In this document: positions 8,503-53,518 of the stretch, piece by piece
How the letters are laid out: the number at the start of each line of letters is the position of its first letter
How positions within the stretch are numbered: the stretch's first letter is position 1
Source of the DNA: a virus
Lineage: Duplodnaviria; Caudoviricetes
Reading direction: 5' to 3' (one strand)
Virus record (IMG/VR): IMGVR_UViG_3300043399_000050
Coordinates: 1-55,112 of that record
DNA length: 55,112 bases
Made by a program: the position numbers and the translations under genes
The notes under the pieces: generated by a model
Told to the model about the DNA's origin: nothing
The model's input: the letters and a program-made list of their open reading frames with translations, nothing else
The model's database searches: none

Positions 8503-8511
8503 GGTTATCCC

Positions 8512-9783: not shown

Positions 9784-10232
9784 TATGCGTACCTCCAGTA
9801 CTGCCCGTTCTTAATCCGTTGAATTGATTTGCGAGACACACCATACTCCTCTGCTATCAAGTGTAGCGGCTTATATTCCTCAGCCAAAATGCGTTTGATC
9901 TCTTTGACCTGCTCGGGCGTTAGCGCTTTACCTGCACGCAACTTACGAGCCATATCGTCAAGATTGTCTGCGTCAGTGCCAAGGAACAGATGGTCAGGAT
10001 TTACGCAAGACGGGTTATCACAAGTGTGACATACATGAAGCCCAGTAGGGTCGCCTTTCATAAGTTCATATGCAACACGATGTGCCTGCCGAGTTTTCCC
10101 AAGAAAATTGAACTTACCGTAGCCGAGTGGGGACTTAGCCCCCATCCATAGCCAGCAACCATCCTGCTTCTGGACATAGTGCCAGAAACGTTGGTCAACC
10201 GTTAGGTTCATAGTTTCCTTGGGCCTAGACAT
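9783..10232 (-). mobile_element. Free-standing HNH homing endonuclease with C-terminal HTH
   Basis: CWLW.G...GYG, AHRVAY, VCHTCDNPSCVNPDHLFLGT..DN..D, then an HTH (IAEEYGVSRKSI.RI). Confidence 0.9.
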
Positions 10233-10233
10233 A

Positions 10234-10674: not shown

Positions 10675-10684
10675 GATTTACTCC

Positions 10685-12280
10685 TTAGTTAAGTTGGTTT
10701 CCATTGAGTGTGTACCCTGCAAAGGTGTACTCCGACTCCGTGCGGATATTGTAAACAATACCAGCATTGGGGTCAGTTGTCAGTACAAACTCACCGTTCA
10801 CAAGCGGTTGGTGAACTAGGTGGCTGTTGAGTGTACCCGGCACAGGGAAGTATGTGAACTTGTCGTCCGAGGTAAACGCGAAGTCGTAGAGCGGAGATGT
10901 CTGCCCTAAAATTAACTCCAGCGTAATGTTATCGTCAATTGTTGCGCTATCTGTTAGCGCAAGACCAACTACAAATACAGGCGCGGCATCTGTCGCGGTA
11001 ACTGCATCAGTCTGAACTTCGCTGACATTAAGCGCAACAGTATCAGCAACGGCTACAGAGTCAGTCAAGTCTGGTTTGGTTACTACGAACGCCGTGATTT
11101 CATCGGCGGTTGCAGCAGAGTCAACAGCAACATCTGTACTGAAGGCGGAAATCGCATCGTCAACTGTGACTGAATCAGTTAGGGTTTTCCCTACCGTAAA
11201 GTCGTTGATTTCATCAGTCGCGGCTACGGTATCAGCCTCACCTTTACTGATGTCAAACGAGTTGACTGCATCGGCTACCGTCACGGCATCAGTATCTACC
11301 CTGTCAACCGCCAATGCTGTTGCATCATCAACAGTCACCGCATCGCTATCGACACGGGCTACATCGAGCGCAGTGGCATCATCAACAGTCACCGCATCGC
11401 TATCGACACGGGCTACATCGAGCGCAGTGGCATCATCAGCCGTAACCGCGTCTGTCTCAACCTTAGCGACATCAAGTGCCGTGGTGTCAGCCACAGTTAC
11501 AGCATCAGTTTCACTCTTACCCGGTGCAAGAACTGCGGTATCCGCAACAGTTACCGCATCTGTTTCGACTTTACCCGGTGCAAGAACTGCGGTATCCGCA
11601 ACAGTTACCGCATCTGTTTCGACTTTACCCGGTGCGAGTGTCGCAGTATCTGCAACAGTAACCGCATCTGTAAGGTCAGGCTTGGTCACCTCAAACGCCG
11701 TGATGGAATCCACCGCAGCAGTTGTATCCAGCACAATACCCGCATCAAACGCCGAGATTGTTTCGGTAACTGTTACTGAGTCGGTTAGTACTTTTCCAAC
11801 GGTGAACTCGTTGATCTCGTCTGCCCCCGTTACGGAGTCAGTCTCGACCTTAGCGACATTAAGTGTCGTGGTGTCAGCCACCGTGACAGCATCAGTTTCA
11901 CTCTTACCCGGTGCAAGAGCGGTTGCATCAGCCATCGTGACAGCATCCGTCGCCGTTTTACCCGGTTCAAGAGCCGCTGCATCAGACAATGTAAAGTCGT
12001 CAGACAGGACTTTTTCGACAGTCAGAGCAACATCTTCTGTGACAGTTGCAACCTCAATCAGGACTGTCCCAATATCGAAGTTAATTAGGTCGTCAGTAAT
12101 GCTCGCCGTATCCGCCAATAGTTTTGACGGGATGATGGATACCGCGCTGACAAAGGCGCGGGACTGGTAATTTTCAGTAACTACAATCTCGGGGGCGCGA
12201 ACAGACGCACTTACTGTTGCTGCCGCAACAAGGGCAGACAGTGAAGTGACAACCTGAGCGGCAACCCGGATATTAGCCAT
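10685..12280 (-). CDS. Acidic repeat-rich fibre-like structural protein (18-aa repeats)
   Basis: 531 aa; ~20 imperfect DAVTVADT..L..GK.ET units. Confidence 0.8.
   Translation of the reverse strand: MANIRVAAQVVTSLSALVAAATVSASVRAPEIVVTENYQSRAFVSAVSIIPSKLLADTASITDDLINFDIGTVLIEVATVTEDVALTVEKVLSDDFTLSDAAALEPGKTATDAVTMADATALAPGKSETDAVTVADTTTLNVAKVETDSVTGADEINEFTVGKVLTDSVTVTETISAFDAGIVLDTTAAVDSITAFEVTKPDLTDAVTVADTATLAPGKVETDAVTVADTAVLAPGKVETDAVTVADTAVLAPGKSETDAVTVADTTALDVAKVETDAVTADDATALDVARVDSDAVTVDDATALDVARVDSDAVTVDDATALAVDRVDTDAVTVADAVNSFDISKGEADTVAATDEINDFTVGKTLTDSVTVDDAISAFSTDVAVDSAATADEITAFVVTKPDLTDSVAVADTVALNVSEVQTDAVTATDAAPVFVVGLALTDSATIDDNITLELILGQTSPLYDFAFTSDDKFTYFPVPGTLNSHLVHQPLVNGEFVLTTDPNAGIVYNIRTESEYTFAGYTLNGNQLN
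11322..11438. repeat. Exact 54-bp tandem repeat (2+ copies)
   Basis: Unit GCATCATCAACAGTCACCGCATCGCTATCGACACGGGCTACATCGAGCGCAGTG at 11322 and 11376. Confidence 0.9.
11517..11635. repeat. Exact 54-bp tandem repeat (2+ copies)
   Basis: TTACCCGGTGC recurs at 11517, 11571 and 11625 with identical intervening sequence. Confidence 0.9.
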
Positions 12281-33139: not shown

Positions 33140-34997
33140 TTTTGAAACCTACTACGACAAGGAGTATTCGCTTTCAAAGATAACCACCGAACAGTATGTT
33201 CGTAGCCCTGAGTTTGAAGTCATCGGCGTGGGGGTTAAAGTCAACGACTACCCGACTGACTGGTACTCAGGCGATAACCCTGAGCGGTTTCTCAAGAGTC
33301 TTGACTACCGAGACAAGGCAATCCTTTGCCACAACACTGCGTTCGATGGGGCAATCCTGTCGTGGCGGTTTGGCATCAAGCCTAAGTTGTGGCTCGACAC
33401 CCTGAGTATGGCTAGACCTCTGCATCAAATGACTGTGGGGGGTTCTCTCAAAGCACTGGCAACTTATTATGGGTTGGGTGTGAAGGGTGACGAAGTCATC
33501 ATGGCATTGGGTAAACGCAGGGCTGACTTTAGTCCTGACGAAATGGCACGGTACGCATCGTACTGTGTGAATGATGTTGACCTGACCTACGCATTGTTCA
33601 ACAAGTTGAAGGTTGGTTTTCCTGTGTCGGAGATGCTGGTCATCGACCAAACCATTCGCATGTACACCGAGCCAGTGATCGAGTTGGACAGGGAACTCTT
33701 AGAGAAACATCTTGGTGAAGTCATTGCCAAGAAGCGCACTCTAATCTCTGACATGGGCATCAACGATGCGAGTGAGGAAGCCATTAAGAAAGTCTTGATG
33801 AGCAACCAAATCTTTGCGAAGTACCTGACTAACCTCGGAGTCGAGCCACCAACCAAGGTGAGCGCCCGCACGGGCAAGGAAACATTTGCGTTCGGCAAGA
33901 CGGACAAAGGATTCACTGACTTGCTAGAACATCCTGATGAGAGAGTGCAGGTCGCGGTCGCGGCGAGACTGGGGGTCAAGTCTACTATTGAAGAAACCCG
34001 CACCCTCAATTTGATCGGGGTGTCCGAGCGAGGTCGCCTGCCGATCATGCTCAATTACTATGGGGCGCACACTGGTCGGTTCAGTGGCGGGGACAAACTC
34101 AATCTTCAGAACCTGCCTGCGCGTGGGAACAACACAATCCGACGGGCATTGAAAGCACCCGCAGGGCAAGTTATTGTGGCGTGTGATTCGGCACAGATCG
34201 AGGCCCGCATGGTTGCATGGGTAGCCGAGCAACAAGATTTGCTTGAAGCCTTTGCTCAGAAGCGTGATGTGTACTCAGAGTTTGCCACCGAAGTTTATGG
34301 GCGCACCATTACCAAGGCTGACAAGGTGGAGCGGTTCGTGGGCAAGACCTGTATTTTGGGGTTAGGTTATGGCATGGGCGCAGAGAAGTTCAGGCGCACA
34401 TTGGAGATTGGTCAAGGCGGTGTGTCCGTCAAGATCACCATCCAAGAAGCCGAGAGGATTGTGCGTCTGTATCGGCAGAAGAACTTCAAGATTGTCCAGT
34501 TGTGGAACAAGTGTGGGCAAGCACTGAACGGCATACTCAATCGTGTATCGGGTGAGATAGCCCGTGGAATTATCTACGATGAGCAAGGCATAAGACTCCC
34601 CAACAAGTTGTACATTCGCTACCCTGCACTGCGAGCCAACGGCACGAACTTTGAGTACATCGCTGACGCTCGTCAATATAGGAAGGCGGTGCAAGACCGA
34701 GTGGTATCAGGGCAGACCTCTGACATTTCGTGGACAAAAATCTACGGGGGCAAGGTCACGGAGAACTTGATTCAAGCACTGGCTCGTATCGTAGTCGCAG
34801 AACAAATGGCAAAGATCGGGCAACACTACCATGTCGCTTTCCAAGTGCATGACGAGATCATCATCACGGCCCCGGAAGCAGATGCGACAAACGCACAGCA
34901 ACTTCTTGAGGCAGTCATGTCCACTGCACCACGCTGGTGTCCTGATCTACCAGTCGCATGTGAGTCGGGTGTGGCAACCAACTATGGAGAAACATGA
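33120..34997 (+). CDS. polA: Family A DNA polymerase with 3'-5' exonuclease
   Basis: DFET, HN..FD, YC.ND exonuclease motifs; TGRFS, NLQNLP, motif A DSAQIEAR, motif B R..GK...LGLGYG, motif C VHDE. Confidence 0.95.
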   Translation: MDIVTIDFETYYDKEYSLSKITTEQYVRSPEFEVIGVGVKVNDYPTDWYSGDNPERFLKSLDYRDKAILCHNTAFDGAILSWRFGIKPKLWLDTLSMARPLHQMTVGGSLKALATYYGLGVKGDEVIMALGKRRADFSPDEMARYASYCVNDVDLTYALFNKLKVGFPVSEMLVIDQTIRMYTEPVIELDRELLEKHLGEVIAKKRTLISDMGINDASEEAIKKVLMSNQIFAKYLTNLGVEPPTKVSARTGKETFAFGKTDKGFTDLLEHPDERVQVAVAARLGVKSTIEETRTLNLIGVSERGRLPIMLNYYGAHTGRFSGGDKLNLQNLPARGNNTIRRALKAPAGQVIVACDSAQIEARMVAWVAEQQDLLEAFAQKRDVYSEFATEVYGRTITKADKVERFVGKTCILGLGYGMGAEKFRRTLEIGQGGVSVKITIQEAERIVRLYRQKNFKIVQLWNKCGQALNGILNRVSGEIARGIIYDEQGIRLPNKLYIRYPALRANGTNFEYIADARQYRKAVQDRVVSGQTSDISWTKIYGGKVTENLIQALARIVVAEQMAKIGQHYHVAFQVHDEIIITAPEADATNAQQLLEAVMSTAPRWCPDLPVACESGVATNYGET

Positions 34998-39865: not shown

Positions 39866-40142
39866 CCCGCCTATCGACTTTGTAAAGGTCGAGGCGTTAC
39901 GGAGGCACATGATGTTGACAACCGACAACATGGCGCGTCTGTTTGGTGTCAGTCGGATGACTTATTATGGGTGGGTTAAGGGTAAGCCCCTGCGCAAATC
40001 CAACGACGGAATGGTGAGGACTGTGCTAAAACAGTTGCTTGCTATCATGGTCGAGGACAAGTGGCCCACTCCTGATGTCATAGCGATGGAGCAACCACAA
40101 CGCAAGGAACGCCTTGACGAACTATTGAAGCGTTTTGAATGA
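39855..40142 (+). CDS. Cro/CI-type (XRE) HTH regulator
   Basis: LRR...LT...MARLFGVSRMTYYGW.KG.P. Confidence 0.85.
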   Translation: MTPNPPIDFVKVEALRRHMMLTTDNMARLFGVSRMTYYGWVKGKPLRKSNDGMVRTVLKQLLAIMVEDKWPTPDVIAMEQPQRKERLDELLKRFE

Positions 40143-40182
40143 GGTAAGGGGGGAGCAATCCCCCCTGAATAACGGGGACTGT

Positions 40183-43050
40183 ATGGACACGCTGAGTTTT
40201 CTTCAGCGAGTTTTACCAACTGAGGGATGGTACTGTGTAGCCAGTTTTGAGGGTGACAATCCAAAACCAAGGCATGGATACTTTGATTCAGTAGAAAAAC
40301 TCGCAAAAGTTATTGTTGCCCTGAACGGGCGTGGGATGAACACCTACTACTCTATCTCCACTTTCAAGGAGAAGCGTAGGCTCAAGGAGAATGTTCAACT
40401 CACCAAAGTCCTAGCCATAGATGTTGATTGTGGCATAGGCAAGAACGGAAAGCCGAAGCCCTTTCCAAATGCAAGTGAGGGCGCAAAGGCTCTTGTTGCT
40501 TTCGTCAAAGCGACAGGGCTACCCATGCCGATGATGATCTCGTCAGGCAACGGCATACATGTTTACTGGATATTGGATGAAGCGATAGCGCCTGAGCAGT
40601 GGAACCCACTGGCTCATGCTTTGAAAGCCGCTTGCTTGAAACACAACTTCACTCCCGACATTGGGGTGACTGGTGATAGCGCACGGATTCTGCGCCCTGT
40701 TGGGTGCGTCAACCCCTTTGGTGGAAAGACCGCAACCTTTATTCGCGACACGCAAGAAGTGTCGTATGCACAACTGTGGTCAATCCTTGAACCATATACA
40801 TCAGGCTCACCGTATGAGCCACCCGAGCGTAAACAATCTACCAGTAAGTTGCTGGATGCTTTGGCAGTCAAGCACGAGTACCAACCCGCAAATCCCGAGC
40901 GCATCATCAATGGATGCCAACAGATCAAATGGGCAGTCGAGCATCAGGACGAAGTGTCCGAACCCATGTGGTACAACCTCATCGGTGTAGCGGCGTTCTG
41001 TAATGAACCTGAGCAGGTAGCCATTGAGTGGAGCAAGAACCACCCCGGCTTTGACCAAACCGCAACCCTCAACAAGTTGCACCATTGGAAGCAGGGCGCG
41101 ACCGGCCCGACGACATGTCCGAAGTTTGAAACCGAACGCCCCGGTGGATGTAAGGGTTGTAAGTTCAAAGACAAGATCGGTAGCCCCGCAAGATTGGGAA
41201 CCCAGTTTGCAGAAGTCAAGTCGATGGCGGCACTTGCTGACCCATTGGCGGCAGAGATTCCAGTACCCAAACCGTTTAAGCGCACCACAGATGGCATGAA
41301 GATGGTGATTGATGACACGGATGTGGATGTGTGTAAGTTTGACTTGTATCCGATTGGATACGGGAGAGACGAGGGGTTGGGTTATGAAGTCGTGCGCTAC
41401 ATGTGGAATCGCCCGCATGTGGGGTGGACTGAGTTAGCCCTACGGCAAGCCCATCTGACTGATGGTAGCCGTGACTTTGCCGCCGCGATTGCCGATCAGG
41501 GCATCGTACTTTTTAACAAGAACCAAACGGGATATTTCCAAATGCTTCTACGCTCATACATGGAGGAGTTGAAGCAACGCCGTGGACTGACCAACCTTTA
41601 TTCTTCAATGGGATGGAAGGATAACTACAACGAGTTTGTCATCGGCAATGCTGTGATGCGCCGTAATGCTAACGGTGAAGTCACCTCCGAACAAATCAAC
41701 CTAGCGGCATCCATTGGTCGAGTCACCGAGGACATGTATGCGTCCAAGGGCTCGCTTGAAGAATGGGTGAACTTCACAAACATCTTGCAGACTGGCGGCT
41801 TGACACTCCACAAGTTCTTGCTAGGCTTCTCATTCGGCACACCGCTACTGAAGATCAGTGGCTTGAAGGGTTTAATCCTGTCGCTCTACGGCAAGACTGG
41901 TGGCGGCAAGACCTTGGGTCAGTACATGATGCAGTCCATTTGGGGCAACCCTGACCTGCTCCATTTCGGTGGCAAGTTCACACAAAATGGTTTGTTCTCT
42001 CGCTTGGCTTTGCATGGCAACACGCCCATGACCGTGGACGAACTGACCATGATGAACAACGAGGAAGCGGGTGACTTACTTTACTGGACTAGCCAAGGGC
42101 GAGACAAGGCAAGATTGAACCGCAACTCCGAGGAACGGGCGATCAAAGAGTGGGCAACCACCTTGACTGCATCCACCAACGAGTCGCTACATAGCAAACT
42201 GTTTGCCCACGGACACGCAACCGATGCGCAACTGGCTCGACTGATTGAGTTCAATGTTCACCCCCATCCACTGTTCATCAAGAACACACAAGTTGGTAGG
42301 CAAATCCACGCTTTTCTAATGAGCAACTACGGACTGGCTGGCCCTGAGTTTATGAAACGCATCATGGTGATGGGCGCACCTGCCGTCAAAGGGATGCTTG
42401 AACATGCTCTTGCGGAGTTCCCCAAAAAGTACGGGGTACATTTTTCAGGCGAAGATCGGTTCATCGAAGCGGGTCTAGTGCTTGCTGACTTGGGCAACCA
42501 ACTTGCCAAAGAGTGGGGCTTAGTCCTGTATGACTATGAGGACGCAACTGCTTGGGCAGTGAATGAAGTCAAGAGCATGAAGTCCGTAGCCGAGGGTAAC
42601 AAGTCAGATGCCTTCGACACCTTGGGGGAGTTCATCAACGAACACATGGATAAGATGGTTAGTGTCAGCCACACCGATGGACAGAAACCCATGCGGGACA
42701 ACACCCGCCCATACATTGATGAGGTGGTTATTCGTTACGACTTCTACCGCAAGAACTTCACTGATGTGTACCACGGTGGTACGGTGCTAATCGAACGCAC
42801 GGCACTACGCAAGTGGTTGTCCCGCAGAGGTGTGGACTTCAAAGGATTCATACGGGAGTTTGAGGAAGAAGGCATCATCGCCACACCCAAGTCGCAGAAG
42901 GCATATTTCGGTAAAGATATTGGGCTAAAGATTCCGCAGTGCTATGTGATTGGCGTCAACCTCAATCACCCACGCTTGCAGGGAATCTTGGATGACGCCG
43001 CTTCTCAGCCTATTGAGAACCTAACGCATGGGCAGTTGAAGGTAGTTTAA
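40183..43050 (+). CDS. Primase (RepB/AEP-like) + PriCT-like + DUF927 helicase
   Basis: DVD, SSGNGIHVYW, RILRP.G..N; C-rich linker; GW motif; YGKTGGGKT Walker A, VDE Walker B, STN. Confidence 0.88.
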   Translation: MDTLSFLQRVLPTEGWYCVASFEGDNPKPRHGYFDSVEKLAKVIVALNGRGMNTYYSISTFKEKRRLKENVQLTKVLAIDVDCGIGKNGKPKPFPNASEGAKALVAFVKATGLPMPMMISSGNGIHVYWILDEAIAPEQWNPLAHALKAACLKHNFTPDIGVTGDSARILRPVGCVNPFGGKTATFIRDTQEVSYAQLWSILEPYTSGSPYEPPERKQSTSKLLDALAVKHEYQPANPERIINGCQQIKWAVEHQDEVSEPMWYNLIGVAAFCNEPEQVAIEWSKNHPGFDQTATLNKLHHWKQGATGPTTCPKFETERPGGCKGCKFKDKIGSPARLGTQFAEVKSMAALADPLAAEIPVPKPFKRTTDGMKMVIDDTDVDVCKFDLYPIGYGRDEGLGYEVVRYMWNRPHVGWTELALRQAHLTDGSRDFAAAIADQGIVLFNKNQTGYFQMLLRSYMEELKQRRGLTNLYSSMGWKDNYNEFVIGNAVMRRNANGEVTSEQINLAASIGRVTEDMYASKGSLEEWVNFTNILQTGGLTLHKFLLGFSFGTPLLKISGLKGLILSLYGKTGGGKTLGQYMMQSIWGNPDLLHFGGKFTQNGLFSRLALHGNTPMTVDELTMMNNEEAGDLLYWTSQGRDKARLNRNSEERAIKEWATTLTASTNESLHSKLFAHGHATDAQLARLIEFNVHPHPLFIKNTQVGRQIHAFLMSNYGLAGPEFMKRIMVMGAPAVKGMLEHALAEFPKKYGVHFSGEDRFIEAGLVLADLGNQLAKEWGLVLYDYEDATAWAVNEVKSMKSVAEGNKSDAFDTLGEFINEHMDKMVSVSHTDGQKPMRDNTRPYIDEVVIRYDFYRKNFTDVYHGGTVLIERTALRKWLSRRGVDFKGFIREFEEEGIIATPKSQKAYFGKDIGLKIPQCYVIGVNLNHPRLQGILDDAASQPIENLTHGQLKVV

Positions 43051-46000
43051 TCGGGGACACCCGCAAGGGTTTCCTCGTCTACCCCATACATGCGCAGAAG
43101 TTCTTTGGCTTCTGCACGACCCGCCTGCGCGGAGGACTTGAGCGCACGAATCGCCATTGGTTTTTTGGCTTCACGGAAAGCACGGTTGACCGAGTTACCA
43201 AAGTTCCTGATCTCAAGGCGTGTACCCTTAGTGGATTCGTTCCACTCACGAATGTAGTCTTTGACTGCGGCTTCTGACTCACGGTCGCCTGACAGACGGG
43301 CAGATACAGAACGGCGCACCGCTTCAGTCTTAATCATCTGCATGTAGGCTTGTTCTTGAGAGTCAGCCATCAACCAGTCCATCTGAGCCTGTGCGCGGGA
43401 TGGATGCCAGCCCATCGCTTTACCCATGATCTCCCAAGTTGTTGCGTTCTGAGAAACTACATAACCTTTCTTGTCCGTAATCGCACCCGTGTTGTGGTAC
43501 TTGAACGCATCGCCAAGGTTAGCGATTGCCCGTACTGGGGAGTCACCCATCAGGGATGTGAAACTCTTGCGACCCGTAACCACTCCGGGGATGGTGTTGA
43601 AGGTGTACTCAAACGCACCTGCCAAGAACGAAGTAGGCGCACCTGCGATGTTGACCACTTCACGAAGAATCTCTTGCTTGGTAGCCGAAGGCTTGAGCAG
43701 ACCAGTGCCGGGGACAATATCGCCAAGACCCAAGCGGTTGGAGAATGACCAGCCAGTGAAGTGGTCAAGCAGACCACGCATCATGATCGGAGTCAGATCG
43801 TTGGCAAGTTCTTCACCCACGGTGTTGCGCAAGATACGAGCAAACTCTTTCTCAATCGAACCAGTCTTGAGGCCAAGACGCTGGGCAATACCATCAACAA
43901 TGTCCAACAAGTCGTCAGAACCCGGTAGTCCTCTCACCCCGGAGAGCAGGAGCAACGACCCAAGCATGATGATTCGCCCTTCGTAATTCATATTCTTGAG
44001 CAACTGAATCATCATAATCGGGTACTGTTTGTACATGTACACGAAGGACTGCAAGCCACCACGGAAGAAAGCAGGGCGGTTGTACTGAGCGTAATCACCT
44101 TGCGTTGCATCAACGGCACGAGTGGCTACCCCACGGGCGGCAATGTCGGCTTGCGTTGTCGTAGCGCCAGAAGCAATCTGCCGATCATACTCACCACGAT
44201 ATGCTGCTAGGAGTGTGACTCGACGGTTGAACTGCTCGGTGTAAGCGAAGGGGAACATCCAAGCCTGAATAAATTTCTGCGCAGTTGGGTTACCAGTGAT
44301 GCGGCGACCACGGCTAGTACCAGTCATGGCGTTGAATTGAGCGGCGTCAAGGCGTTGCTCCTCAGTCATCTGCTCAAGGAAAGACAACTCACCGAGGGTT
44401 AAGCCATCCTTATTGGTCTTAGCACCTGACTTCTGTAAGGCTTCGATTTGATCTTTGATGTACTGAAGGTTGGCGTACTTGAAGTTGCCCACCCGCATAC
44501 CATAGGAAAGCAAAAGCGATGCGGCTTTACCTGCACCCAGTCCGACACCAAAGCCAGTCTTGGGGTTGAAGGTAGACAGGTACGCCCATGAGTTTGTCGG
44601 CAACGAAAGCACTTGCGTTACGCCAGTGGCAATGGAGCCACCTAGTTGGGCAATAGCCGCCCAAGTACGAGCCGCAACCGACCACTCGTTGTTTGTCCAA
44701 ATGTCATCGGCGTGAACGATGTCACCCGTAGAGTCGAGCCAGTCGATCATGGACTTGGCGCGTTCCTTATAGTAGTTACCCTTGGTGACAAACTTATCGT
44801 CAGGAGCCACGGCATTGCCATAATAGTATTTCTCTTGGAAGTACTCGCGTGCTGCCAGTTCTTTGGCTTCACCCTTGGCGGATTCCCACTTCAGGCGCAG
44901 TTCTTCCAGTCGGTCAGCATCGCCTTCCCAGTTCAGTGGGTTGTCAATGATCTCGTCATACTGGTGGCGGAACTCTTTGTTAGCGGCAGTGTAGGCTTGT
45001 TGCTCCAAGAAGGCAGACGCACTACGAACCACATCAGCATCCCAGCCAGCCATACCTGCACGCTGGAGGTTGGCACGAGCGCGGGTGTTTTGTGCCGTGA
45101 CTTTCTTAACGAGCGTGTCGCGCTCACCCGGAGTCAGGCGGATGCCAAGACGGGACAGGGAATACATCACTTCGTCATAGTGCAAGATGTCTACCAGTGC
45201 TGGTGTCTGTTCAGCGACGGAGGCTACGGCACGCAAATAGACGGTCTGTGCAACTCCGTCTTTGTCACGCATCTCATGCTCACCCGCAAGGATGGCATCA
45301 ACTTCATCCTTGACTTCACGGGCGGCTTTCTCGTTTGCCACCTTGGTAAAGAACAGGGAGTCTTGCTGGCTCTGCGACAGACGGACTGGAATCTCTTTGC
45401 CACCTTCCATACGGTAGGCTTGGACACGCACTTGCCAGTCGCCGTCACGGGTCAAGGGTACATAGTTACCAGCGATGGTGCGCTTGGCGTACATCTGATC
45501 GTCATTGATCGAAGCGGCAAACATGGTGCGCTCCTCCACCCGGCGAACCAACGCCCAAATGGAGTTACCGTTCACATCGTCCAACTCAGGGTCAGTACCG
45601 ATGCGCAGTTTGGGGCGCAACCCTTTAACAATCTCGTTGACTTCCTCAGCCGTGTAACCTTTGACGGTCTTAGCCAAGTCGTTCAAGGCAAGGTCAGTGT
45701 AAAGTGAGCGACCAAACTTCTTGTTTAGCCATTCGTTGGCGTTGTCCTCAGACTGTTCGCTTAGTACCAAGCGGTTGTCTTTGTAGACTGCTTCTTCCAT
45801 ACGCATGTCATCGTAGATAGCCACGATGTCGTCAATGAACTTGCGTTCGCGTGCAGTCAGTCCAGACTTGAAAGCATCTCCGATACCAGCCGTAACTGTG
45901 CGGGTCTGTTCATGGATAGCACCCATGTACTTGGAGCGCAGAATATCCACGGCACTATTGGCGATGGTGTCAGAGAACTCTTGGTAGACCTTGTACTCAA

Positions 46001-49000
46001 TAGAGTCCTCGGTCAGGTCTTTGAACCATGCGGGGGTGTCCACCATGTTAGGCACGGCGTAAGTACTCTCGCTCAACTGCTTGGTGTATCTACGCTTGGT
46101 TGCTTCAATCTTACGGTCGAAGTCCCGCTCAGTTTTCTTGATCTTGAGTTGTTGTTCCAACTTGGCTTCTTCGTTATCCAGTTCAGCCAACTTGTCATTC
46201 ATGCGCTTGAGGTTCTTAGCCTTGCCTGCTTCCAATGCCTCAAGGTCAGCCGTTTGGTTAGCGGCAATCTCAGCCCGATGCTCATCGGTCATCGGCACTT
46301 CCTTGAATCCTTGCTGAACCTTAAAGCCTTTCTTGAACTCCTCAAAGGACACCATACCCATCTTCTTCAGGGACTCAATGGCGTCAGCGTTGATACCAAA
46401 AGTCTGCTCGGTCAGGTCGTAGTAGACGGGGTTATCCATCTTAGCCAGTTGGCTATCCGAGTACTGGTTCATGCGCAACAGCGTGGCGTAAGCCATCAAT
46501 TGCCCAGCCCGCAAGTTCTCGTCAGGAGTCATACCCTCGCCCATGCCTAGGAACTTGGCTTCGTGAGCAGTCTTGGTTCCCTCGGCGTAGCGGGTCTTGT
46601 ATTCAGTTTGGCGGGCAGCACGGTTCTGAGTAACCGTAAATACTTTGAAGTAGCCCTTACTCTTGCGAGCCATGTTGTCTTGCGTTTGGATACCGTCAAG
46701 AACTTTCTGTACCACATTACGGACATTAGCCAGTACGCCCTTGCCTTCCTTGCGCATCTTCTCAGCCGTTATCTTGGCTTCAAGTAAGTCTTTCCACGCA
46801 CGCTGGATACCGCCGTACATTGCACGGTTTTGGTTTACATTGTTCAAAGCAAATGTGGCGTCCCCGATTGGCATTGCTTGCGCAAAGCGCAGAACTTCCA
46901 TGTCCGATTGCTCGTTGAGCAGAGACTGATTGACCTCTTTGAAAATGCTAGAGACATTGACTTCAGAACGACCAATGCCTTGACGGATGTACTTGCGTGA
47001 TAGACCAATCAAATAGCGGGCAGAGTCGTCTTGGAAGCGGAAGCCCAACTTGTTGAGTTGGTCTTTGACCCAGTTCCAGAATCGCAGAATGGTGTTCGTA
47101 TCTAGTGCAGCGGCACGGTCAGCCAGTACTTCTTCAACGGCTTCAAGGAACGGGATGTTCTTACCTTGGGCGTACACCTCGGCTGCGTGCGTAAGTGTGG
47201 GGTCAGAATCAGCAACAAGTCGGAGTATCTTGTTCAGTGCAGCATCGCTAAATAAACCACGGAAGCCCACATGCCCCAGCGTTTCGTGGGCAATGATGAA
47301 GCGGGCGTGATCTTCGGAGTAGATGAAGTCCGAGAACAGGACGATGTTGTTGCCCCAAGCCATACCAGCGGCATTAACCGCTTCGATGTCGCCTTCACGG
47401 CGGGCTTTGGCTGCGGCTTCAAACAGCGCAGGGTTTTGCCGTTTCATCTCAGCAAGGTTGGAGAACACCGCCACATTGGGCTTGCGTGCGTAACGGGAGA
47501 TGATGCGGGCAACGAACAGACGCAGCGGGCCAGCCTTCATTGGGTCAGCAGGTTTGCCATCCACACGGAAGAAACTCAGGTCGCCACGGTCAGTACCAGT
47601 CTTGTTGTCCATCAGCGGGTCATACTGAATGTCGTCCAGCGTGGTCTGATCTTCCACATCTTCTAGTTCACGCAGTTCCTTACGGGCTTCGTTGTGCTTC
47701 TTAGTGAAGTCATCACGAGTCATCTTCTCGTCAGTGCGAGTGTTCGGGATGTAGTAGGACTTGCCCGGTGGCTGGGAAACAATCGGCTCACCTTCAGCCG
47801 TAAAGTAATCTTGGATGGTTCCACGAGGGCCAACAACATAGGATGGCTCATCAACCTTGGCGTACAGTTTCTTGAGGTGGTTAACCAACTGCTCTTTCTT
47901 AGGCCACTGAGGGGTGGAGTTCAGAAAGTTAGCCAGTCGCTCCTCAGGAGTAACCAGTTCATTAGCAGGTGGCGTAGTGATTGGGCCAGCCACGGCTTCT
48001 TGTTCAGCCTTGGCTCCGGGTTCACGGACTCGCTCTTGCACAGTGGCGTCGTTCAACAGACCGTTCTCAGCCAGCAGTGCGTACAGACGCGAGTTTGGAC
48101 GGATTACATCTTGGTCAAGAGCAACCTCACGCAGTGCCTGCTGGAAGTCCAGTTTCGATACGCCTTGCTCATGGTCTGCCAAGAAGTTTTCAGATGTCTT
48201 ACGCAGGTAGGTTCGAGGTGCAGAGAACACCAGCGTCTCAACGATGTCGTACAGGGCTTCCGCATAGGCGGCAGCATCCTTGGTTGTCTCAGCCGTTTCA
48301 ATGGCGAGGTCAAGTTCTTCGTTGGCGGCAACTGTTTCTTCAGACGCTTCACGCGGGCCACGCTTGGTTTCACTGGCAACCACGGCAGGCTGGGTAGTTG
48401 TACCCATGATCTGCCCCACCATAGCCGCAATACCACTCGGGCCTTTTTGCAACTTGGCGGCTTTGGGTGCAGGCTGCGCCTTAGCCTCAGTCTTTTTTGC
48501 CGGGGCTTTCTTTAGCGTCTTGCCCCCTTTGGGTGGAGGCGGTGGCTCCTCAGGTGGAGTCTCGGCTACTTTTTCTTCGGCTTTGCCTTTGCGGAGGGCT
48601 TTACCTTTTCCGGCAGGTTCTTTGGCACGCCGTACTTCTTGGCCCACTTCTTCGCCAGTTGGGGTTTCTGGCTGAACAGATACCCCTGCTGCGCCTTGCT
48701 CTTGAACGGCATCTTGTTTCTCCTTACGGGTACGCTTGGGTTTAGCAGGCGGCTGAGGCGTACCTTGGAACTCACCGTCTTTGAACTCGCCATCCATGAC
48801 GGTTCCATCGGAATCCAAGAAACGACCCTGCCCGTGGGGTACGCCATCTTTCATGCCCCCTGTGTAGACACTGCCATCGAAATAAGTCAGGGTTCCCTGA
48901 CCGTTGGGTTCACCGTTGCGCAACTGCCCTTCGTAAACCGAGCCATCCTCATAGGTAAAGATGCCAGTACGCTGGCGCTTGAGTGCTGCACCCCTAGCCG

Positions 49001-51293
49001 CTTGGCTAGTGACTGCTGTAACGGGTGCGCCTGTCGGCGGAATCTGGGCAGCGCCAGCCTGCACGGTCGGTACAACTCGTTGCTGTGTGCCTGCTGAACG
49101 CAGGGCAGCCATCGTGGGCTGACCTTGCTGGGTAAATAGGGACAACTGACCAGCCCGCTGAAACTCTTGCGGGGTAGGACGAGCGACCACAGGAGCGGGG
49201 GCTGGAGCCATAGGAGCCACGGGGCGAGGAGCCGTGCGTGGCGGGATCGGAGCCTGCCGCTGGGTAAAGAGAGGCAACTGACCACCCTGTGTAGACCGAA
49301 GTGCCTGCTGCGTGGGCTGACCACGCTGATTGAACAAGGACATTTGCTGCGGTGTACGAACTGGGACAGGTACAGTCGGTGGGGCAGACGGCATTGTGGA
49401 TGCAGTTTGCGGGGTCATTTCGGGCTGCACACGGGTAAGCGGCATCTGACCGGGGAACAGGGGTAACTGACCAGTCGGAGGGGCAAGCGGAGCCTGCTCA
49501 CCTTGGAATAGACCCATCTGACCTTGCTGAGCCTGAGCCGCTTGAGCAGCCACAGGGGGTAGGTCTTGGAACTCTGCAAGTTGTTGGTCAATCTGTTGCA
49601 GTGCAGTACGGGCTTGCTCCATGTTTTGCCGCAACATGTTGATGCGACCTTGTTGAAGCACGGCCCGTCCACCTGCCATGTCAGACAGTTCTTGCTGGGC
49701 ATCAGTAATGAAGCGAGCCAGTTGAGCGCGTTGGTCAAGCAAAGCCTGACGCTGTTCCATACGAGGAGCCGGGCTAACGGCTGCACCAGCAGGGGGCGTC
49801 CCCATCGGTGGCTCAGGCGGTGCGCCAAACAATTCACCTTGGGTTCCCGGTGGGCCTTCAGGCAGTGTAGGTACTTGAGGCGCACTGCTGGTCATCGAGG
49901 TATCAGGGTTATTACCACCTGACAACAAGTCGGCAGGTTGTTTACCCAATGGGCCGCGACGGAGGTTTGCACCTGCTCCAATCGTTCCACCCACACCAAA
50001 GCCAGCGGCAAACGACTCAATCAAGCGGTCAATGTTTTCTTCGCTACCAAAGTCCTGCCCAGTCAAACCAAGCAGCATGGACTCTTGTCCAACTTCAGTC
50101 AGACCTTCAGCAGGGCCACCGATAGCAACACCTTTGGCTCCGCGTTTGAGTAGTTCGCCGCCGCGCTTAGCCCCCGTGGTTAGAAGGTTTGTACCCTGAA
50201 TATCCTTGAGCGCAGTCGCGCCTGAGCGTGGGGACAGACCACCAACACCAAACAGACGAGACGCAAGCAGGTACTCAGGCAAAGACTCCAGCAGGGCGTA
50301 AGGCACGCCACCAAGGAAGGCAGAGGTTCTTGCGCCTACATCTTCGGGGCCAGCACCCTGTTCACGGAACTCACCGTAAATATCAGAGATACCCATGCCG
50401 TAGTTCTGCGCCGTGCTTGCTGCAACCGCACCCGTAATACCTGCGGCTTGGCGTAGAAACTTCTCATCGAAGGCTTGGCCTGCGGCACGCTTGGCTAGTT
50501 CACGCTCAACCTTGTCGGCAAATTCTTTCTTACCAGCCGTGCTGGCAAGCCACTGACCGACACGAGGAAGTATCGCACTACCACCTGCACCCGTAGCAGC
50601 CAATGGGCCACCAAGGAAATAACCACCCGCAGCAGCCGCAATCGAACCAAGGATGTTCGGCCCTTGTTGGGCAACCGTTGCAGCCAGCCAGTCAATGGCT
50701 CCACCCGCCGAGTCAATCTCTTGGAACTCACGGCGGTACGGCAGGTTCTTACGGATGTCCTCGTACTGACGGTCAACAATGTTCTGACCAACTTCCTCAG
50801 CGCCAAACAACTGCAAACCACGACCAGCAAGTTGCTGCATCTGATCCACACCGATGCCAAAGTTCTTGGACATCAACCGACCAAGGCCGGGGTTACGAAT
50901 CTGATTGGCTAGTTGGGAGTATGTATCGGGTGTCAGCGTAATCCAGTCGCCACCTTTGGGTAGACCTACGGGAGGTTGCCCAAGCAACTGCTCAGCACGC
51001 AGAGTCATGTCAGCGTCGTCCTCATCAAAGGTGACGCCTTGCACAAACAACTTCTTCTGCGACGGACTGTACGCAATAGCAGGTTCAGTCTGAACCTGCT
51101 GGGTTTGGAACTGCGGAACTTGGGCAAGCGCGGCCTGACCAGCAGCCGCTAGACCTGCGGCGGCTTCTTGCGTGGACAAGCCAGAACTACCCTGCCCCGG
51201 ATACAAAAACCCGTAAGCACTCATGCTCCTAGCGAGTTGATCGTTAGGAGTTGAGTAGATCGGGTCTGTCAAACTTGGCCCCGCTTTAGCCAT
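43047..51293 (-). CDS. Giant internal virion/DNA-ejection polyvalent protein (2748 aa)
   Basis: Last and largest of three ejection-type genes; hydrophobic Gly/Ala N-domain, QxxLF array, MORN repeats, HETLGH zincin motif, helical C-terminus. Confidence 0.85.
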   Translation of the reverse strand: MAKAGPSLTDPIYSTPNDQLARSMSAYGFLYPGQGSSGLSTQEAAAGLAAAGQAALAQVPQFQTQQVQTEPAIAYSPSQKKLFVQGVTFDEDDADMTLRAEQLLGQPPVGLPKGGDWITLTPDTYSQLANQIRNPGLGRLMSKNFGIGVDQMQQLAGRGLQLFGAEEVGQNIVDRQYEDIRKNLPYRREFQEIDSAGGAIDWLAATVAQQGPNILGSIAAAAGGYFLGGPLAATGAGGSAILPRVGQWLASTAGKKEFADKVERELAKRAAGQAFDEKFLRQAAGITGAVAASTAQNYGMGISDIYGEFREQGAGPEDVGARTSAFLGGVPYALLESLPEYLLASRLFGVGGLSPRSGATALKDIQGTNLLTTGAKRGGELLKRGAKGVAIGGPAEGLTEVGQESMLLGLTGQDFGSEENIDRLIESFAAGFGVGGTIGAGANLRRGPLGKQPADLLSGGNNPDTSMTSSAPQVPTLPEGPPGTQGELFGAPPEPPMGTPPAGAAVSPAPRMEQRQALLDQRAQLARFITDAQQELSDMAGGRAVLQQGRINMLRQNMEQARTALQQIDQQLAEFQDLPPVAAQAAQAQQGQMGLFQGEQAPLAPPTGQLPLFPGQMPLTRVQPEMTPQTASTMPSAPPTVPVPVRTPQQMSLFNQRGQPTQQALRSTQGGQLPLFTQRQAPIPPRTAPRPVAPMAPAPAPVVARPTPQEFQRAGQLSLFTQQGQPTMAALRSAGTQQRVVPTVQAGAAQIPPTGAPVTAVTSQAARGAALKRQRTGIFTYEDGSVYEGQLRNGEPNGQGTLTYFDGSVYTGGMKDGVPHGQGRFLDSDGTVMDGEFKDGEFQGTPQPPAKPKRTRKEKQDAVQEQGAAGVSVQPETPTGEEVGQEVRRAKEPAGKGKALRKGKAEEKVAETPPEEPPPPPKGGKTLKKAPAKKTEAKAQPAPKAAKLQKGPSGIAAMVGQIMGTTTQPAVVASETKRGPREASEETVAANEELDLAIETAETTKDAAAYAEALYDIVETLVFSAPRTYLRKTSENFLADHEQGVSKLDFQQALREVALDQDVIRPNSRLYALLAENGLLNDATVQERVREPGAKAEQEAVAGPITTPPANELVTPEERLANFLNSTPQWPKKEQLVNHLKKLYAKVDEPSYVVGPRGTIQDYFTAEGEPIVSQPPGKSYYIPNTRTDEKMTRDDFTKKHNEARKELRELEDVEDQTTLDDIQYDPLMDNKTGTDRGDLSFFRVDGKPADPMKAGPLRLFVARIISRYARKPNVAVFSNLAEMKRQNPALFEAAAKARREGDIEAVNAAGMAWGNNIVLFSDFIYSEDHARFIIAHETLGHVGFRGLFSDAALNKILRLVADSDPTLTHAAEVYAQGKNIPFLEAVEEVLADRAAALDTNTILRFWNWVKDQLNKLGFRFQDDSARYLIGLSRKYIRQGIGRSEVNVSSIFKEVNQSLLNEQSDMEVLRFAQAMPIGDATFALNNVNQNRAMYGGIQRAWKDLLEAKITAEKMRKEGKGVLANVRNVVQKVLDGIQTQDNMARKSKGYFKVFTVTQNRAARQTEYKTRYAEGTKTAHEAKFLGMGEGMTPDENLRAGQLMAYATLLRMNQYSDSQLAKMDNPVYYDLTEQTFGINADAIESLKKMGMVSFEEFKKGFKVQQGFKEVPMTDEHRAEIAANQTADLEALEAGKAKNLKRMNDKLAELDNEEAKLEQQLKIKKTERDFDRKIEATKRRYTKQLSESTYAVPNMVDTPAWFKDLTEDSIEYKVYQEFSDTIANSAVDILRSKYMGAIHEQTRTVTAGIGDAFKSGLTARERKFIDDIVAIYDDMRMEEAVYKDNRLVLSEQSEDNANEWLNKKFGRSLYTDLALNDLAKTVKGYTAEEVNEIVKGLRPKLRIGTDPELDDVNGNSIWALVRRVEERTMFAASINDDQMYAKRTIAGNYVPLTRDGDWQVRVQAYRMEGGKEIPVRLSQSQQDSLFFTKVANEKAAREVKDEVDAILAGEHEMRDKDGVAQTVYLRAVASVAEQTPALVDILHYDEVMYSLSRLGIRLTPGERDTLVKKVTAQNTRARANLQRAGMAGWDADVVRSASAFLEQQAYTAANKEFRHQYDEIIDNPLNWEGDADRLEELRLKWESAKGEAKELAAREYFQEKYYYGNAVAPDDKFVTKGNYYKERAKSMIDWLDSTGDIVHADDIWTNNEWSVAARTWAAIAQLGGSIATGVTQVLSLPTNSWAYLSTFNPKTGFGVGLGAGKAASLLLSYGMRVGNFKYANLQYIKDQIEALQKSGAKTNKDGLTLGELSFLEQMTEEQRLDAAQFNAMTGTSRGRRITGNPTAQKFIQAWMFPFAYTEQFNRRVTLLAAYRGEYDRQIASGATTTQADIAARGVATRAVDATQGDYAQYNRPAFFRGGLQSFVYMYKQYPIMMIQLLKNMNYEGRIIMLGSLLLLSGVRGLPGSDDLLDIVDGIAQRLGLKTGSIEKEFARILRNTVGEELANDLTPIMMRGLLDHFTGWSFSNRLGLGDIVPGTGLLKPSATKQEILREVVNIAGAPTSFLAGAFEYTFNTIPGVVTGRKSFTSLMGDSPVRAIANLGDAFKYHNTGAITDKKGYVVSQNATTWEIMGKAMGWHPSRAQAQMDWLMADSQEQAYMQMIKTEAVRRSVSARLSGDRESEAAVKDYIREWNESTKGTRLEIRNFGNSVNRAFREAKKPMAIRALKSSAQAGRAEAKELLRMYGVDEETLAGVPD
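48566..48712 (-). CDS. Overprinted 48-aa basic protein in an alternative frame of the giant gene
   Basis: AAGGAG 7 nt before ATG; MPFKSKAQQGYLFSQKPQLAKKWAKKYG resembles a recurrent small phage protein family. Confidence 0.6.
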   Translation of the reverse strand: MPFKSKAQQGYLFSQKPQLAKKWAKKYGVPKNLPEKVKPSAKAKPKKK

Positions 51294-51295: not shown

Positions 51296-53518
51296 TTACC
51301 TCTCAGTTACTTGCTGTGGTGCATTAACTGCACTCCAGATTCCAGTAGTGTTAATACCGCTAACTCGTGCAGCCGTTGGGCCAACCTGCGCAGTGTTACC
51401 ACCAATGGTAATCGTCTTAGTCTCAGGGTCAATGATATAAATTTCCCCAGCAGGATTGCTATAAGAAATTTGCCCCGTGCTAAGTGCGGTTGCCTTAAAG
51501 CCAGCGTTCTCCATTTTCTTCTTAGCCAACTCAAAGTTACCTTTGATGAGTTCAGCATTGGCCTCACGAACACCTTGGAGGTACTGCTTGCTAGATTCTT
51601 CCCGTATTTTCAGTTCGGACTCAAAAGCCTTATCACCACGGGCGGTCTGAATCTCAGCCAACTTCGCACGGTAGGCAGCATCCACGCGGGAGCGTACCAA
51701 CTGCTCAACTTGTGGGCCAGTCAGATTCACACCGTTCTTAGCCACTTGACCGTTGATGTACAGGTCATAGTTACCGTCAGGGCGTTGCAAGACTTGGTGC
51801 GGCGCATTAGTAAAGGTAGACAAGACCGACATGGCACGGCTGAAGTTACCAGTAGTGGCTCCTTCATACACACCCCAGTCTGCTTGGTTCTTGTACATGC
51901 CAAGGTCAAGTGCTTGAATTTTGCCTACGGTTTCCCATGCCTTATCGCCCATGCCGTATTGCGCATACAACTTGACATCTTCCTGCAACTTACTGCGGAT
52001 TGTTAGAAGTTGCCGAACCTCAGGATTCTGGGCATTAGGAGGCAGCGCGGCTGGGCCTTGCATCGTGCCTGAAGTGGCAGGTGCAGGGGGTTTTACCGCT
52101 TGAGACGCAGCAGTTGCGACTTGAGTCGCGTTACCAGACTGGACTGCTGTTGCCACTTGTTGAGTCGGGCTAGGAAGTCGTGGAGCATTTGCATTGCTTG
52201 CAGTGACCACTGCCGCACCTTGGTTAAAGCCGAGCGCAATACCTGTTTCGATTGTTCGAGCATCATAAGGAACCTTTCCGTTCTCCATTTGGATGATGCC
52301 GCGAACCAACTTTTCCATCGTAGCGGGGTCTTGCACATCGACTACATCATCCGGTTTAACTCCAAGTTGCTCAGTCAAAAACTTCGTGTACGACGCACGA
52401 TCAGTCGTAGTCCAGTTGTTGACGATACCCCGAATGGTGTTGACCCCACGGTTGTTGTAGGACATCAGGTTCATCGTCATGGCACGGATGCCAGCCTCAG
52501 GCGTATCGAAACGAACGAACTCGCCATCGTTGACATAGTTGCCATTGGCATCTTTCATCGACCCTTTCCACGGGGAGTCGGGGGAGAACTTGATATTGCC
52601 GGGGTTGTTATTGCGCAGACCACGGACAGGATTACCCTTGTCGTCAAGCATCCAGTCGGCGTACCCTTCGGCTACTGCCTTTTGTGCGTTAGCAGAACGA
52701 GTCTTTTCGGCGGCAGTGGCTTTTTGGGTTTCAGTCTTGCGTAGATTCTCAATCAGTTGGGCTTCAGTAAGTGGGCGGTTTGCCTGCTCAGCCTGACGAA
52801 CCATGTCGTAGTAAGGCGTAGCCGTACCAGAACCAATCGTGGGAATCTCCACACGGGTAACATCAGGATCATAGATACCAAGCGCACGACCAAGGCGTGG
52901 GACACCAATCTGGTTTGCCAACCAAGTACCACCTTGAGCAACGGCATTAACTGGGCCACCAACAAAGATGTCAGCAGCAGCCGCAGGAGCCTTACCCAAA
53001 GCAGAGCGGTCAATAGCAGCCTGACGCCGCTGGTTTTCAAACTGCAAACGGCGTACCCGCTCAGCATCAGGAAGCGCCTGAAACTCAGCAACACTTAACT
53101 GTTCAGTAGGTACATTGAGCAACTGCTCAGGAGTACGCAAACCAGCGGGGCGAGCGGCAGGTGCAGCGGTTGCAGCAGGTGCAGCAGGTGTAGTCGTAAG
53201 GGGCCGTACTTCAATCTGTGGCGTTGGCACAGGGTATGCGGTCGCTCCACCTGCGGAAGGCGGAACTTGCAACCCACCTTGCGGTGCGGCTGACGGCGTG
53301 CCAAAGGCTTGCCCCGGTGCTTGGTCGAATTGCAAAAGCGGCTGGTTAGCCGCGTTGATTGCACTCTGACCTTGCTTCGCCCGAATCTCGTTGAGTTTGT
53401 TTAACTCTTGAATCTGTAGTTCGCGTTGTCGTTGCGCGAGTAAAGCATCTTCAGCCGCACGCTGGCGGCTGGCGATGACACCCATGCTACTTGCGAACTG
53501 TCCTAGGCTGAGAGCCAT
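51296..53518 (-). CDS. Internal virion protein with lysozyme-like domain
   Basis: RGLRNNNPGNI...F..F.TPE.G.RAM...L..Y...G..TI..I...W...I.MENG at 52278-52625; GGGAGG RBS. Confidence 0.8.
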   Translation of the reverse strand: MALSLGQFASSMGVIASRQRAAEDALLAQRQRELQIQELNKLNEIRAKQGQSAINAANQPLLQFDQAPGQAFGTPSAAPQGGLQVPPSAGGATAYPVPTPQIEVRPLTTTPAAPAATAAPAARPAGLRTPEQLLNVPTEQLSVAEFQALPDAERVRRLQFENQRRQAAIDRSALGKAPAAAADIFVGGPVNAVAQGGTWLANQIGVPRLGRALGIYDPDVTRVEIPTIGSGTATPYYDMVRQAEQANRPLTEAQLIENLRKTETQKATAAEKTRSANAQKAVAEGYADWMLDDKGNPVRGLRNNNPGNIKFSPDSPWKGSMKDANGNYVNDGEFVRFDTPEAGIRAMTMNLMSYNNRGVNTIRGIVNNWTTTDRASYTKFLTEQLGVKPDDVVDVQDPATMEKLVRGIIQMENGKVPYDARTIETGIALGFNQGAAVVTASNANAPRLPSPTQQVATAVQSGNATQVATAASQAVKPPAPATSGTMQGPAALPPNAQNPEVRQLLTIRSKLQEDVKLYAQYGMGDKAWETVGKIQALDLGMYKNQADWGVYEGATTGNFSRAMSVLSTFTNAPHQVLQRPDGNYDLYINGQVAKNGVNLTGPQVEQLVRSRVDAAYRAKLAEIQTARGDKAFESELKIREESSKQYLQGVREANAELIKGNFELAKKKMENAGFKATALSTGQISYSNPAGEIYIIDPETKTITIGGNTAQVGPTAARVSGINTTGIWSAVNAPQQVTER

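Follow-up and report, generated by a model that had tools for sequence, protein, structure and literature searches.

Introduction

Can a long virion gene of a double-stranded DNA (dsDNA) phage carry, out of step with its own codons, a small gene that is older than the reading frame around it? Only a handful of embedded genes have been described in dsDNA phages, and the customary reading is that a new gene arose inside an old one. The question is raised by a viral record of 55,112 nt (IMG/VR IMGVR_UViG_3300043399_000050; Duplodnaviria, Caudoviricetes), analysed over its whole length and called the window below, in which a 48-codon open reading frame (ORF) lies within a giant ORF of 2,748 amino acids on the same strand. 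An earlier note, made from the letters of the window, had picked out this ORF and described it as a captured mini-gene, dual-coded within a giant ejection gene, expected to be missed by standard gene callers and related to a recurrent standalone phage protein. Here it is followed through its homologs, its genomic contexts and the substitutions in its two frames, which make it very probable that the ORF is a genuine gene, translated on its own and lying out of frame within a giant virion gene, with a predicted small protein as its product.

Results

A 48-codon ORF inside a giant gene

The ORF and the Shine-Dalgarno-like sequence ahead of it are present as the earlier note had described them, on the minus strand, which it had left unnamed. 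The start codon ATG occupies 48712-48710 and the stop codon TAG 48568-48566, with AAGGAG 7 nt before the start, and the peptide opens MPFKSKAQ. The whole ORF falls within the 2,748-residue ORF (51293..43047, minus strand), its codons beginning one base after those of this host, such that the host frame over the overlap reads DAVQEQG...; the third frame of the stretch is Arg/Cys-rich and holds a stop. The small frame is uninterrupted for 93 codons counting from an upstream ATG at 48847, and the homologs all start at the methionine of MPFKS. The predicted protein has a mass of 5.5 kDa, an isoelectric point of 10.5, 15 lysines and a single acidic residue. AlphaFold places helices at residues 6-15 and 17-27, followed by an unstructured Lys/Pro-rich tail (mean predicted local distance difference test score 74.6), and the protein as modelled is a simple two-helix unit that gives no pointer to function.

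An ORF with a Shine-Dalgarno sequence is not in itself beyond chance in a gene of this size, as there are 13 other-frame ATG-to-stop stretches of at least 40 codons in the giant gene, two of them with a five-base Shine-Dalgarno match. A 53-codon ORF starting at 48265 was judged a chance ORF and served as a negative control: in the closest relative found, the metagenome contig L170, its ATG is replaced by ACG, its Shine-Dalgarno sequence is gone and it contains an internal stop. What decisively takes the 48-codon ORF beyond chance is its homology. No internal promoter was found within 48300-49300, and the phage itself makes wide use of Shine-Dalgarno sequences, with GGAG or GAGG at -17 to -4 of 28 of its 51 long ORFs, against 4.4% of all positions.

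A family of small basic phage proteins

Matches to the embedded peptide were plentiful. From a 5.8-billion-sequence database, 68 of 75 candidate small proteins (40-80 residues) matched at E<=0.01, the best being 77-89% identical (E 3.7e-17 to 5e-15); the standalone family named in the earlier note does therefore exist, under the name "hypothetical protein" throughout its sources, and at least 370 stretches of IMG/VR were confirmed to belong to it. In the family alignment (A1), which has the window's peptide as its first row and takes the residue names of its columns from it, M1, P2, S5, A20 and L33 are invariant, and F3, K4, K6, A7, Q8, F13, P17, K21, W23, K31 and P34 are conserved in at least 90% of members. 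The model built from A1, an alignment that includes the window's own sequence, matches the embedded peptide at E 2.1e-25. Judged by these alignments, the embedded copy is a true member of this MPFKS family of small basic phage proteins. Two long members of the clusters, P0074 and P0090, were set aside, their sequences being unrelated to the small family.

Curated libraries add little to this. PHROG 1375, a family of unknown function, is the only one matched, weakly by the window's peptide (E 0.0031, 18.9 bits) and at E<=0.001 by 20 of 58 family members (best 4.2e-6), the window's copy not among them. Pfam and NCBIfam gave no match to the embedded peptide, the PDB gave none by sequence, and Foldseek against the PDB returned only matches with E>5. 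Fold matches in BFVD were to uncharacterised phage proteins of 43-44 residues (best E 0.025), and the nearest 30 clusters by language-model features were all hypothetical proteins. By those features the nearest cluster bearing a Pfam domain was DUF3008 (PF11450; score 0.85, with the Pfam domain on 15% of members). Membership of DUF3008 was rejected, with none of 58 family members matching it at E<=1 and the window's peptide not matching at E<=10; its proteins presumably begin in a similar way (MP.KSKAQQ). Literature searches for DUF3008 and for the motif string found no paper, and the accessible parts of the literature on overlapping and embedded phage genes contained no description of the family or of its arrangement.

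Among cultured phages, tblastn with the 48-residue peptide found nothing at E<=1e-3 and megablast with the giant gene found nothing. A 36-residue tblastn query at E<=5 returned 17 weak records, and all four of those inspected were confirmed by the family model. One distant relative is gp8 of Mycobacterium phage Papyrus, annotated as a hypothetical protein, whose gene immediately follows the portal gene (32.7 bits, E 1.8e-11 in a search of four sequences; E 0.2 by tblastn alone); among the relatives in cultured phages it is the easiest to work with. It resembles the window's product in being a small basic protein, of 53 residues, and differs in being free-standing, in carrying an N-terminal Arg/Lys extension and in lacking the MPFKS start. 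Synechococcus phage S-CBS2 (record positions 34225-34296 onward) and phage C75C1 have free-standing copies that are unannotated in GenBank. No embedded copy came to light in a cultured phage. The circular, complete GenBank genome MW202828.1 has an embedded copy beneath a coding sequence for 3,859 amino acids, and no feature for the small ORF, so that at least once an embedded copy has been missed in annotation, as the earlier note had expected.

Two kinds of host gene and a single relative frame

Genomic contexts were compared in the best 80 of the at least 370 IMG/VR loci. The small ORF lay within an ORF of at least 1,000 residues in 24 of these, within one of 300-999 residues in 18, and was free-standing in 37; one was unrecognised by the final pattern. 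All 42 embedded copies were on the strand of their host and in the identical relative frame, with none in the other frame. The mid-size hosts, of about 400 residues, are acidic proteins without a PHROG match, whose genes are flanked by a portal gene (phrog_6547) on one side and a capsid-like gene (phrog_13704) on the other, which is the position of a scaffold gene. Free-standing copies typically belong to the head module: at L040, for instance, the order is large terminase, a 640-residue gene in portal position, an 83-residue ORF, the small gene, a 274-residue gene and the major head protein. In a single case, P0100 (399 residues), the small domain is fused in frame to an acidic protein of about 350 residues. 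Over every embedded copy the host frame shows a recurring AVQEQ motif, (D/N)AVQEQS..EV. The single relative frame probably reflects the fact that Lys-rich codons read one base earlier give a sequence rich in Glu, Gln, Val and Ala, resembling a linker.

In the four genome records searched with the family model, the embedded copy was in each case the only match. These were the 55,112-bp record of the window, the related IMG/VR records G035 and G036 (all three rated 100% complete) and MW202828.1 (for which no completeness estimate was given).

Initiation signals and dual coding

The giants were sampled again through the C-terminal 650 residues of six of them, without reference to the small ORF. 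The resulting host-defined sample of 78 loci, which replaced an earlier giant-based sample of eight, contained 69 whole giants and nine that were cut at the 5' end and hence uninformative. Among the whole giants, 36 of the 37 embedded copies were intact, all in the same relative frame, in hosts with C-terminal domains 41-100% identical. Their start codons were ATG in 30 and GTG in six. GTG-start copies occur at L005/L085/L226, L006/L243, L195, L209, L224 and L225, with xGT as the host codon there.

GGAG or GAGG stood at -17 to -4 of 14 of the 23 unique giant-embedded copies in the first sample and of 29 of 31 in the host-defined sample, against a background in giants of 7%, both for all positions and for same-frame ATG/GTG codons (binomial p=3e-11, uncorrected for relatedness). 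The AT-rich class within hosts of about 400 residues had no Shine-Dalgarno sequence (0/27), with A-rich leaders instead. At 51 of 52 unique loci, the 60 nt around the embedded start were less structured than the mean of the host gene, the median percentile being 0.10 in giants and 0.06 in mid-size hosts.

The codons themselves carry traces of the double reading. Phe3-Lys4 was encoded by TTC-AAR in every copy having these residues, both in giants (22/22) and in mid-size hosts (25/25), and by TTT-AAR in 15 of 36 free-standing copies. As TTT-AAR puts TAA into the host frame, its avoidance in embedded copies is a constraint of dual coding. Equally, the frame equivalent to the host's was open across the ORF in only eight of 36 free-standing copies, and the remaining frame in seven of 36; since other frames are so seldom open there, the unbroken host frame over embedded copies is maintained rather than accidental.

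Selection on the two frames

Changes were counted along the pairs of a minimum spanning tree over the ungapped first 24 codons, and compared with the mutational opportunity for each class, giving descriptive counts rather than tree-based rates (Table 1). In every sample, changes silent only in the small frame exceeded their opportunity more than twofold, and those silent only in the host frame fell below it. The pattern held when the eight codons fixed by the recognition pattern were left out: the two ratios were then 2.46x and 0.69x in giants, 2.29x and 1.09x in hosts of about 400 residues, and 2.59x and 0.79x in free-standing copies; the host-defined sample without codons 2-8 gave 2.72x and 0.48x.

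Table 1. Changes between related copies that are silent in one frame only, with the ratio to mutational opportunity
Sample	Unique copies	Changes	Silent only in small frame	Silent only in host frame
Embedded in giants	23	241	110 (2.58x)	32 (0.53x)
Embedded in hosts of about 400 residues	29	211	94 (2.43x)	43 (0.92x)
Free-standing ("host" frame hypothetical)	35	480	247 (2.92x)	67 (0.60x)
Giants sampled by C-terminal domain	31	217	110 (2.72x)	24 (0.42x)

The 217 changes of the host-defined sample fell 118, 63 and 36 times on small-frame codon positions 3, 1 and 2, respectively. Position 2 of the small frame, with the fewest changes, is the wobble position of the host codons, which is therefore the least variable. 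Hence purifying selection acts in the small frame of embedded copies, about as strongly as in free-standing ones, whereas selection on the host frame over the overlap is mainly the avoidance of stops.

The comparison with L170 is in keeping with dual coding, as the earlier note had proposed it. This contig encodes a giant of 2,916 residues that is 65-97% identical to the window's over 100-residue intervals outside the linker that follows the embedded ORF. The ORF itself differs at 36 of 146 nt and still keeps its ATG, its length of 48 codons, the position of its stop and the AAGGAG sequence. The small proteins are identical at 34 of 48 positions and the host-frame stretches at 28 of 49; 12 of the differences are silent in the small frame alone and eight in the host frame alone, while 16 are silent in neither. 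Just past the embedded stop, on its 3' side, L170 has a large insertion or deletion in the host linker, with 81 and 68 gap columns per 100 in the alignment. The region was also compared with contigs of four sequencing runs, no RNA run being listed among those that carry it; contigs of other runs break off, or continue with other sequence, between 48546 and 48565. Two contigs, X4 and X5, have only four and one differences over 48567-48950, and just 3' of the embedded stop they diverge (21-22 of 197 nt) or break; they were not counted as evidence for dual coding, because the tract of low variation reaches well beyond the ORF.

Presence, loss and history of the small gene

A further 80 loci were drawn by the capsid-like gene. 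In this capsid-defined sample 47 scaffold-position genes had an intact copy, counting a Cys-bearing variant described below. The 33 records without an intact copy showed none elsewhere, 32 of them being fragments.

The tree of the family, built on 43 columns and poorly resolved, requires at least 15 changes of context, against a mean of 47 when contexts are shuffled. Within it, the giant-embedded copy of MW202828.1 lies inside a well-supported clade of 18 scaffold-position copies, so that the small gene has changed its host gene at least once. One idea was that the ORF marks the seam between two former genes. The halves of five giants preceding the ORF had no match (E<=1e-4) in seven giant ORFs without an embedded copy, among them an adjacent pair of 1,011 and 2,251 residues, and the C-terminal domain was the only part shared; this comparison neither supports nor refutes such a junction. 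A long gene may have spread over the small one by growth or fusion, or the small one may have been inserted into it. Hence, of the "captured" mini-gene, the embedded family member stands, and capture is one possible history among these.

Weighing the alternatives

Several observations weigh against reading the ORF as a gene in use. Firstly, it is often absent. No copy was found in 32 of the 69 whole giants, and no trace in 31 of the 80 scaffold-position genes of the capsid-defined sample, where the AVQEQ motif of the host frame is also missing; the complete genome G031 (68,886 bp, rated 100%), from the capsid-defined clade, lacks it altogether. The small gene is dispensable in some lineages. 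Secondly, some copies have decayed: L148 and L150, the two remnants among those 80 loci, have a premature stop within an intact host, and one of the 69 giants, L232, has a copy cut at 27 codons. Thirdly, the window's own evidence is weaker than that of the family. Its start region is only at the 27th percentile (0.27) for low structure, the excess of small-frame-silent differences from L170 (12 against eight) is by itself modest, and the small protein, at 71% identity to that of L170, is less conserved than many 100-residue intervals of the giant (70-97%). Fourthly, the counts in Table 1 carry no correction for transition bias or codon usage, and the recognition of copies by small-frame patterns favours the small frame. 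Finally, the names "ejection" and "scaffold" for the host genes derive from gene order and from weak PHROG matches.

Absence, decay and the modest signal against L170 are what would be expected if the small gene were a relic, overrun by the giant frame and no longer expressed, its intact appearance owed to recent history. This is very unlikely, given that, in the host-defined sample, every embedded copy but one is intact, in hosts whose C-terminal domains share only 41-100% identity, that the substitution pattern equals that of free-standing genes, and that the Shine-Dalgarno sequence is nearly always retained there. Moreover, the embedded copy was the sole copy in each of the four records searched, and L170 keeps start, stop, length and Shine-Dalgarno sequence at 25% nucleotide divergence. 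Standalone homologs exist, and decay was encountered only in the distant L148 and L150 rather than as stops in close relatives.

More improbable still is programmed frameshifting from the host frame into the small one, which would yield a truncated giant with a basic C-terminal tail and no independent initiation. Such a product is formally possible in the window, where no stop interrupts the small frame over the 45 codons before its ATG. The homologous region nevertheless always begins at a start codon (38 ATG and seven GTG among 45 listed nested copies, from samples that partly share contigs), preceded at the right spacing by a Shine-Dalgarno sequence in most copies within giant ORFs, and many relatives have the small frame closed off 1-10 codons before that start (41 against 40 codons in L015 and L016, 54 against 53 in L055). 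Free-standing copies need no shift. A frame open back to a shift site and without a start of its own was not seen, slippery sites not having been searched for.

That the conserved feature is instead the host-frame motif (D/N)AVQEQS..EV, or an RNA structure or DNA site, with the small ORF as a by-product, is the least probable of the three, for although the motif accompanies every embedded copy and the window's giant has no detectable similarity to several others beyond the embedded stretch, the host wobble position is the least variable, opposite to selection on a host-frame protein, small-frame-silent changes show a 2.7x enrichment, the 37 free-standing copies have no long host frame, the motif is missing wherever the small ORF is, and a nucleic-acid element would not produce three-base periodicity centred on small-frame third positions.

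The host gene and its neighbourhood

The small gene sits between two contrasting parts of its host, a MORN-repeat stretch and a hypervariable linker (Table 2). On the giant protein Pfam finds MORN alone (PF02493, E 3.3e-9, residues 787-809), and PHROG finds phrog_11358, of unknown function, at residues 2306-2710. The C-terminal domain is common to other giant ORFs, and with several of these the similarity of the window's giant is limited to the embedded stretch and, more distantly, this domain. The giant hosts come after genes with "virion structural / DNA ejection protein" PHROG matches. Of the "giant ejection gene" of the earlier note, the giant is thus plain, and the ejection label derives from synteny and the weak PHROG matches of neighbours rather than from the giant protein.

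Table 2. Features of the minus strand around the embedded ORF, in window coordinates
Feature	Coordinates	Strand	Basis or remark
Embedded 48-codon ORF (stop included)	48566..48712	-	Sequence reading and homologs
Shine-Dalgarno-like AAGGAG	48720..48725	-	7-nt spacer to embedded ATG
Host gene, 2,748-residue giant virion-module ORF	43047..51293	-	Read through embedded ORF, one base earlier
MORN-repeat stretch of host protein, residues 773-841	48771..48977	-	PF02493; phrog_7324 at residues 773-841; directly 5' of embedded ORF
Hypervariable host linker, indel-rich between relatives	48465..48565	-	Directly 3' of embedded stop
Control other-frame ORF, 53 codons	48104-48265	-	Five-base Shine-Dalgarno match; Cys/Arg/Trp-rich translation
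Upstream neighbour, 740 residues, transglycosylase-type region	51296..53518	-	phrog_873, E 2.3e-41; phrog_7182 "tail injection transglycosylase", E 5.3e-14

From the other side, a 971-residue primase/helicase-like gene on the plus strand (40135-43050; phrog_25314, E 1.6e-96) converges on the giant gene, with a four-base overlap of their ends. In the distant relative L088 the single giant is replaced by two adjacent ORFs, of 1,011 (1383-4415) and 2,251 residues (4415-11167), without an embedded gene, and the giant genes related to it seem to have been split or fused in different phages.

Variant copies and a second small ORF

A variant subfamily has an inserted segment and two conserved cysteines (MPFKN..Q..AC ... 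W[ND]C), with intermediates grading into the canonical form. It is carried by L092, L095, L096, L099-L101, L103, L107, L108, L110, L114, L142, L146, L147, L155, L160, L161, L163 and L164, and by L171 at 1501-1629; its cysteines might bind metal or form a disulfide.

A 60-nt core of the window's ORF (48597-48657) is matched with no more than six differences by short contigs of other organisms, from several metagenome runs, which are unlike the window on both sides of it. Within one sample, different phages thus share a family core that hardly varies in its DNA sequence.

The scaffold-position gene can also hold, in that same relative frame, another small basic ORF that is unrelated to the first and has the motif LT..EW..A[LM]K.P.PH[RK]NKKKY. 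It lies about 45-110 codons into the host, with or without the MPFKS ORF, and was found at about 1420-1600 in each of L103, L107, L108, L112, L120, L122, L123, L126, L128, L129, L132, L141, L144, L158 and L161. Its 15 unique copies differ by 200 changes, of which 101, 55 and 44 are on its codon positions 3, 1 and 2; changes silent only in its frame reach 2.75x opportunity and the reverse class 0.59x, a count biased by the finding of these copies through a pattern in that frame. Only three called proteins match it, and they show no free-standing form.

Discussion

The locus is best explained by two readings of one message. The late mRNA of the giant gene carries the internal AAGGAG and ATG, at which ribosomes probably initiate to make a strongly basic two-helix protein of 5.5 kDa, while those coming from the giant's own start would read the same bases one position earlier as a variable, indel-prone linker. 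The small gene would be the older partner, overlapped by a long reading frame in two kinds of larger virion gene: giant genes of the internal or ejection module, and the acidic gene of about 400 residues in scaffold position. A role in the virion or in head assembly is one that we infer, as is the direction of the evolutionary event. Tentatively, and with rather less than even confidence, the product may be a basic protein associated with the virion or with head assembly that binds DNA or acidic internal proteins and is co-expressed with its host gene.

Two known systems offer comparison. In the Rz/Rz1 spanin genes of phage lambda, a short gene with its own start likewise lies inside a longer one, on the same strand and out of frame, and the MPFKS gene shares with Rz1 its complete embedding and its own start codon. 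However, Rz1 is usually seen as bound to its host gene in one functional unit, whereas the MPFKS gene is also widely free-standing (37 of the 80 loci) and occurs in two unrelated host genes, in which the host-frame stretch looks like a passenger linker. The overprinted genes of small viruses, such as B in A and E in D of phiX174, similarly combine two-frame coding with selection in both frames, here on amino acids in one and on stop avoidance in the other. In those viruses the embedded frame is classically the new gene; here it is the embedded frame that appears old and widespread and the long-frame stretch that appears derived, and in a 55-kb dsDNA genome the saving of space is a weaker argument.

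This suggests a wider possibility, which we hold with less than even confidence: that acidic, disordered stretches of virion genes give shelter to genes for small basic proteins, shifted by one base. The long genes would have extended or merged over an earlier free-standing gene of the head module, so that the embedded reading would be ancestral and the long frame its passenger, an overprinting in reverse. The change of host gene seen in the tree and the second basic ORF, with the same substitution signature in the same harbour, bear on this idea. If it were general, many dsDNA phage genomes would hide small virion-linked genes, and the dosage of their products may track that of the acidic host proteins.

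The MPFKS gene is thus an apparently old and widespread small gene that larger virion genes contain, always in one relative frame, at no fewer than 42 of the best 80 loci and in 36 of the 69 whole giants sampled independently. It provides a testable family for asking how often phage annotation misses embedded genes, and its cultured relatives with free-standing copies, Papyrus gp8 and the unannotated ORF of S-CBS2, make it tractable. On the side of function, it draws attention to a small basic protein associated with the modules for the head or the virion interior. For phage evolution, it shows that a passenger stretch whose sequence is set by another gene can be tolerated within a long one.

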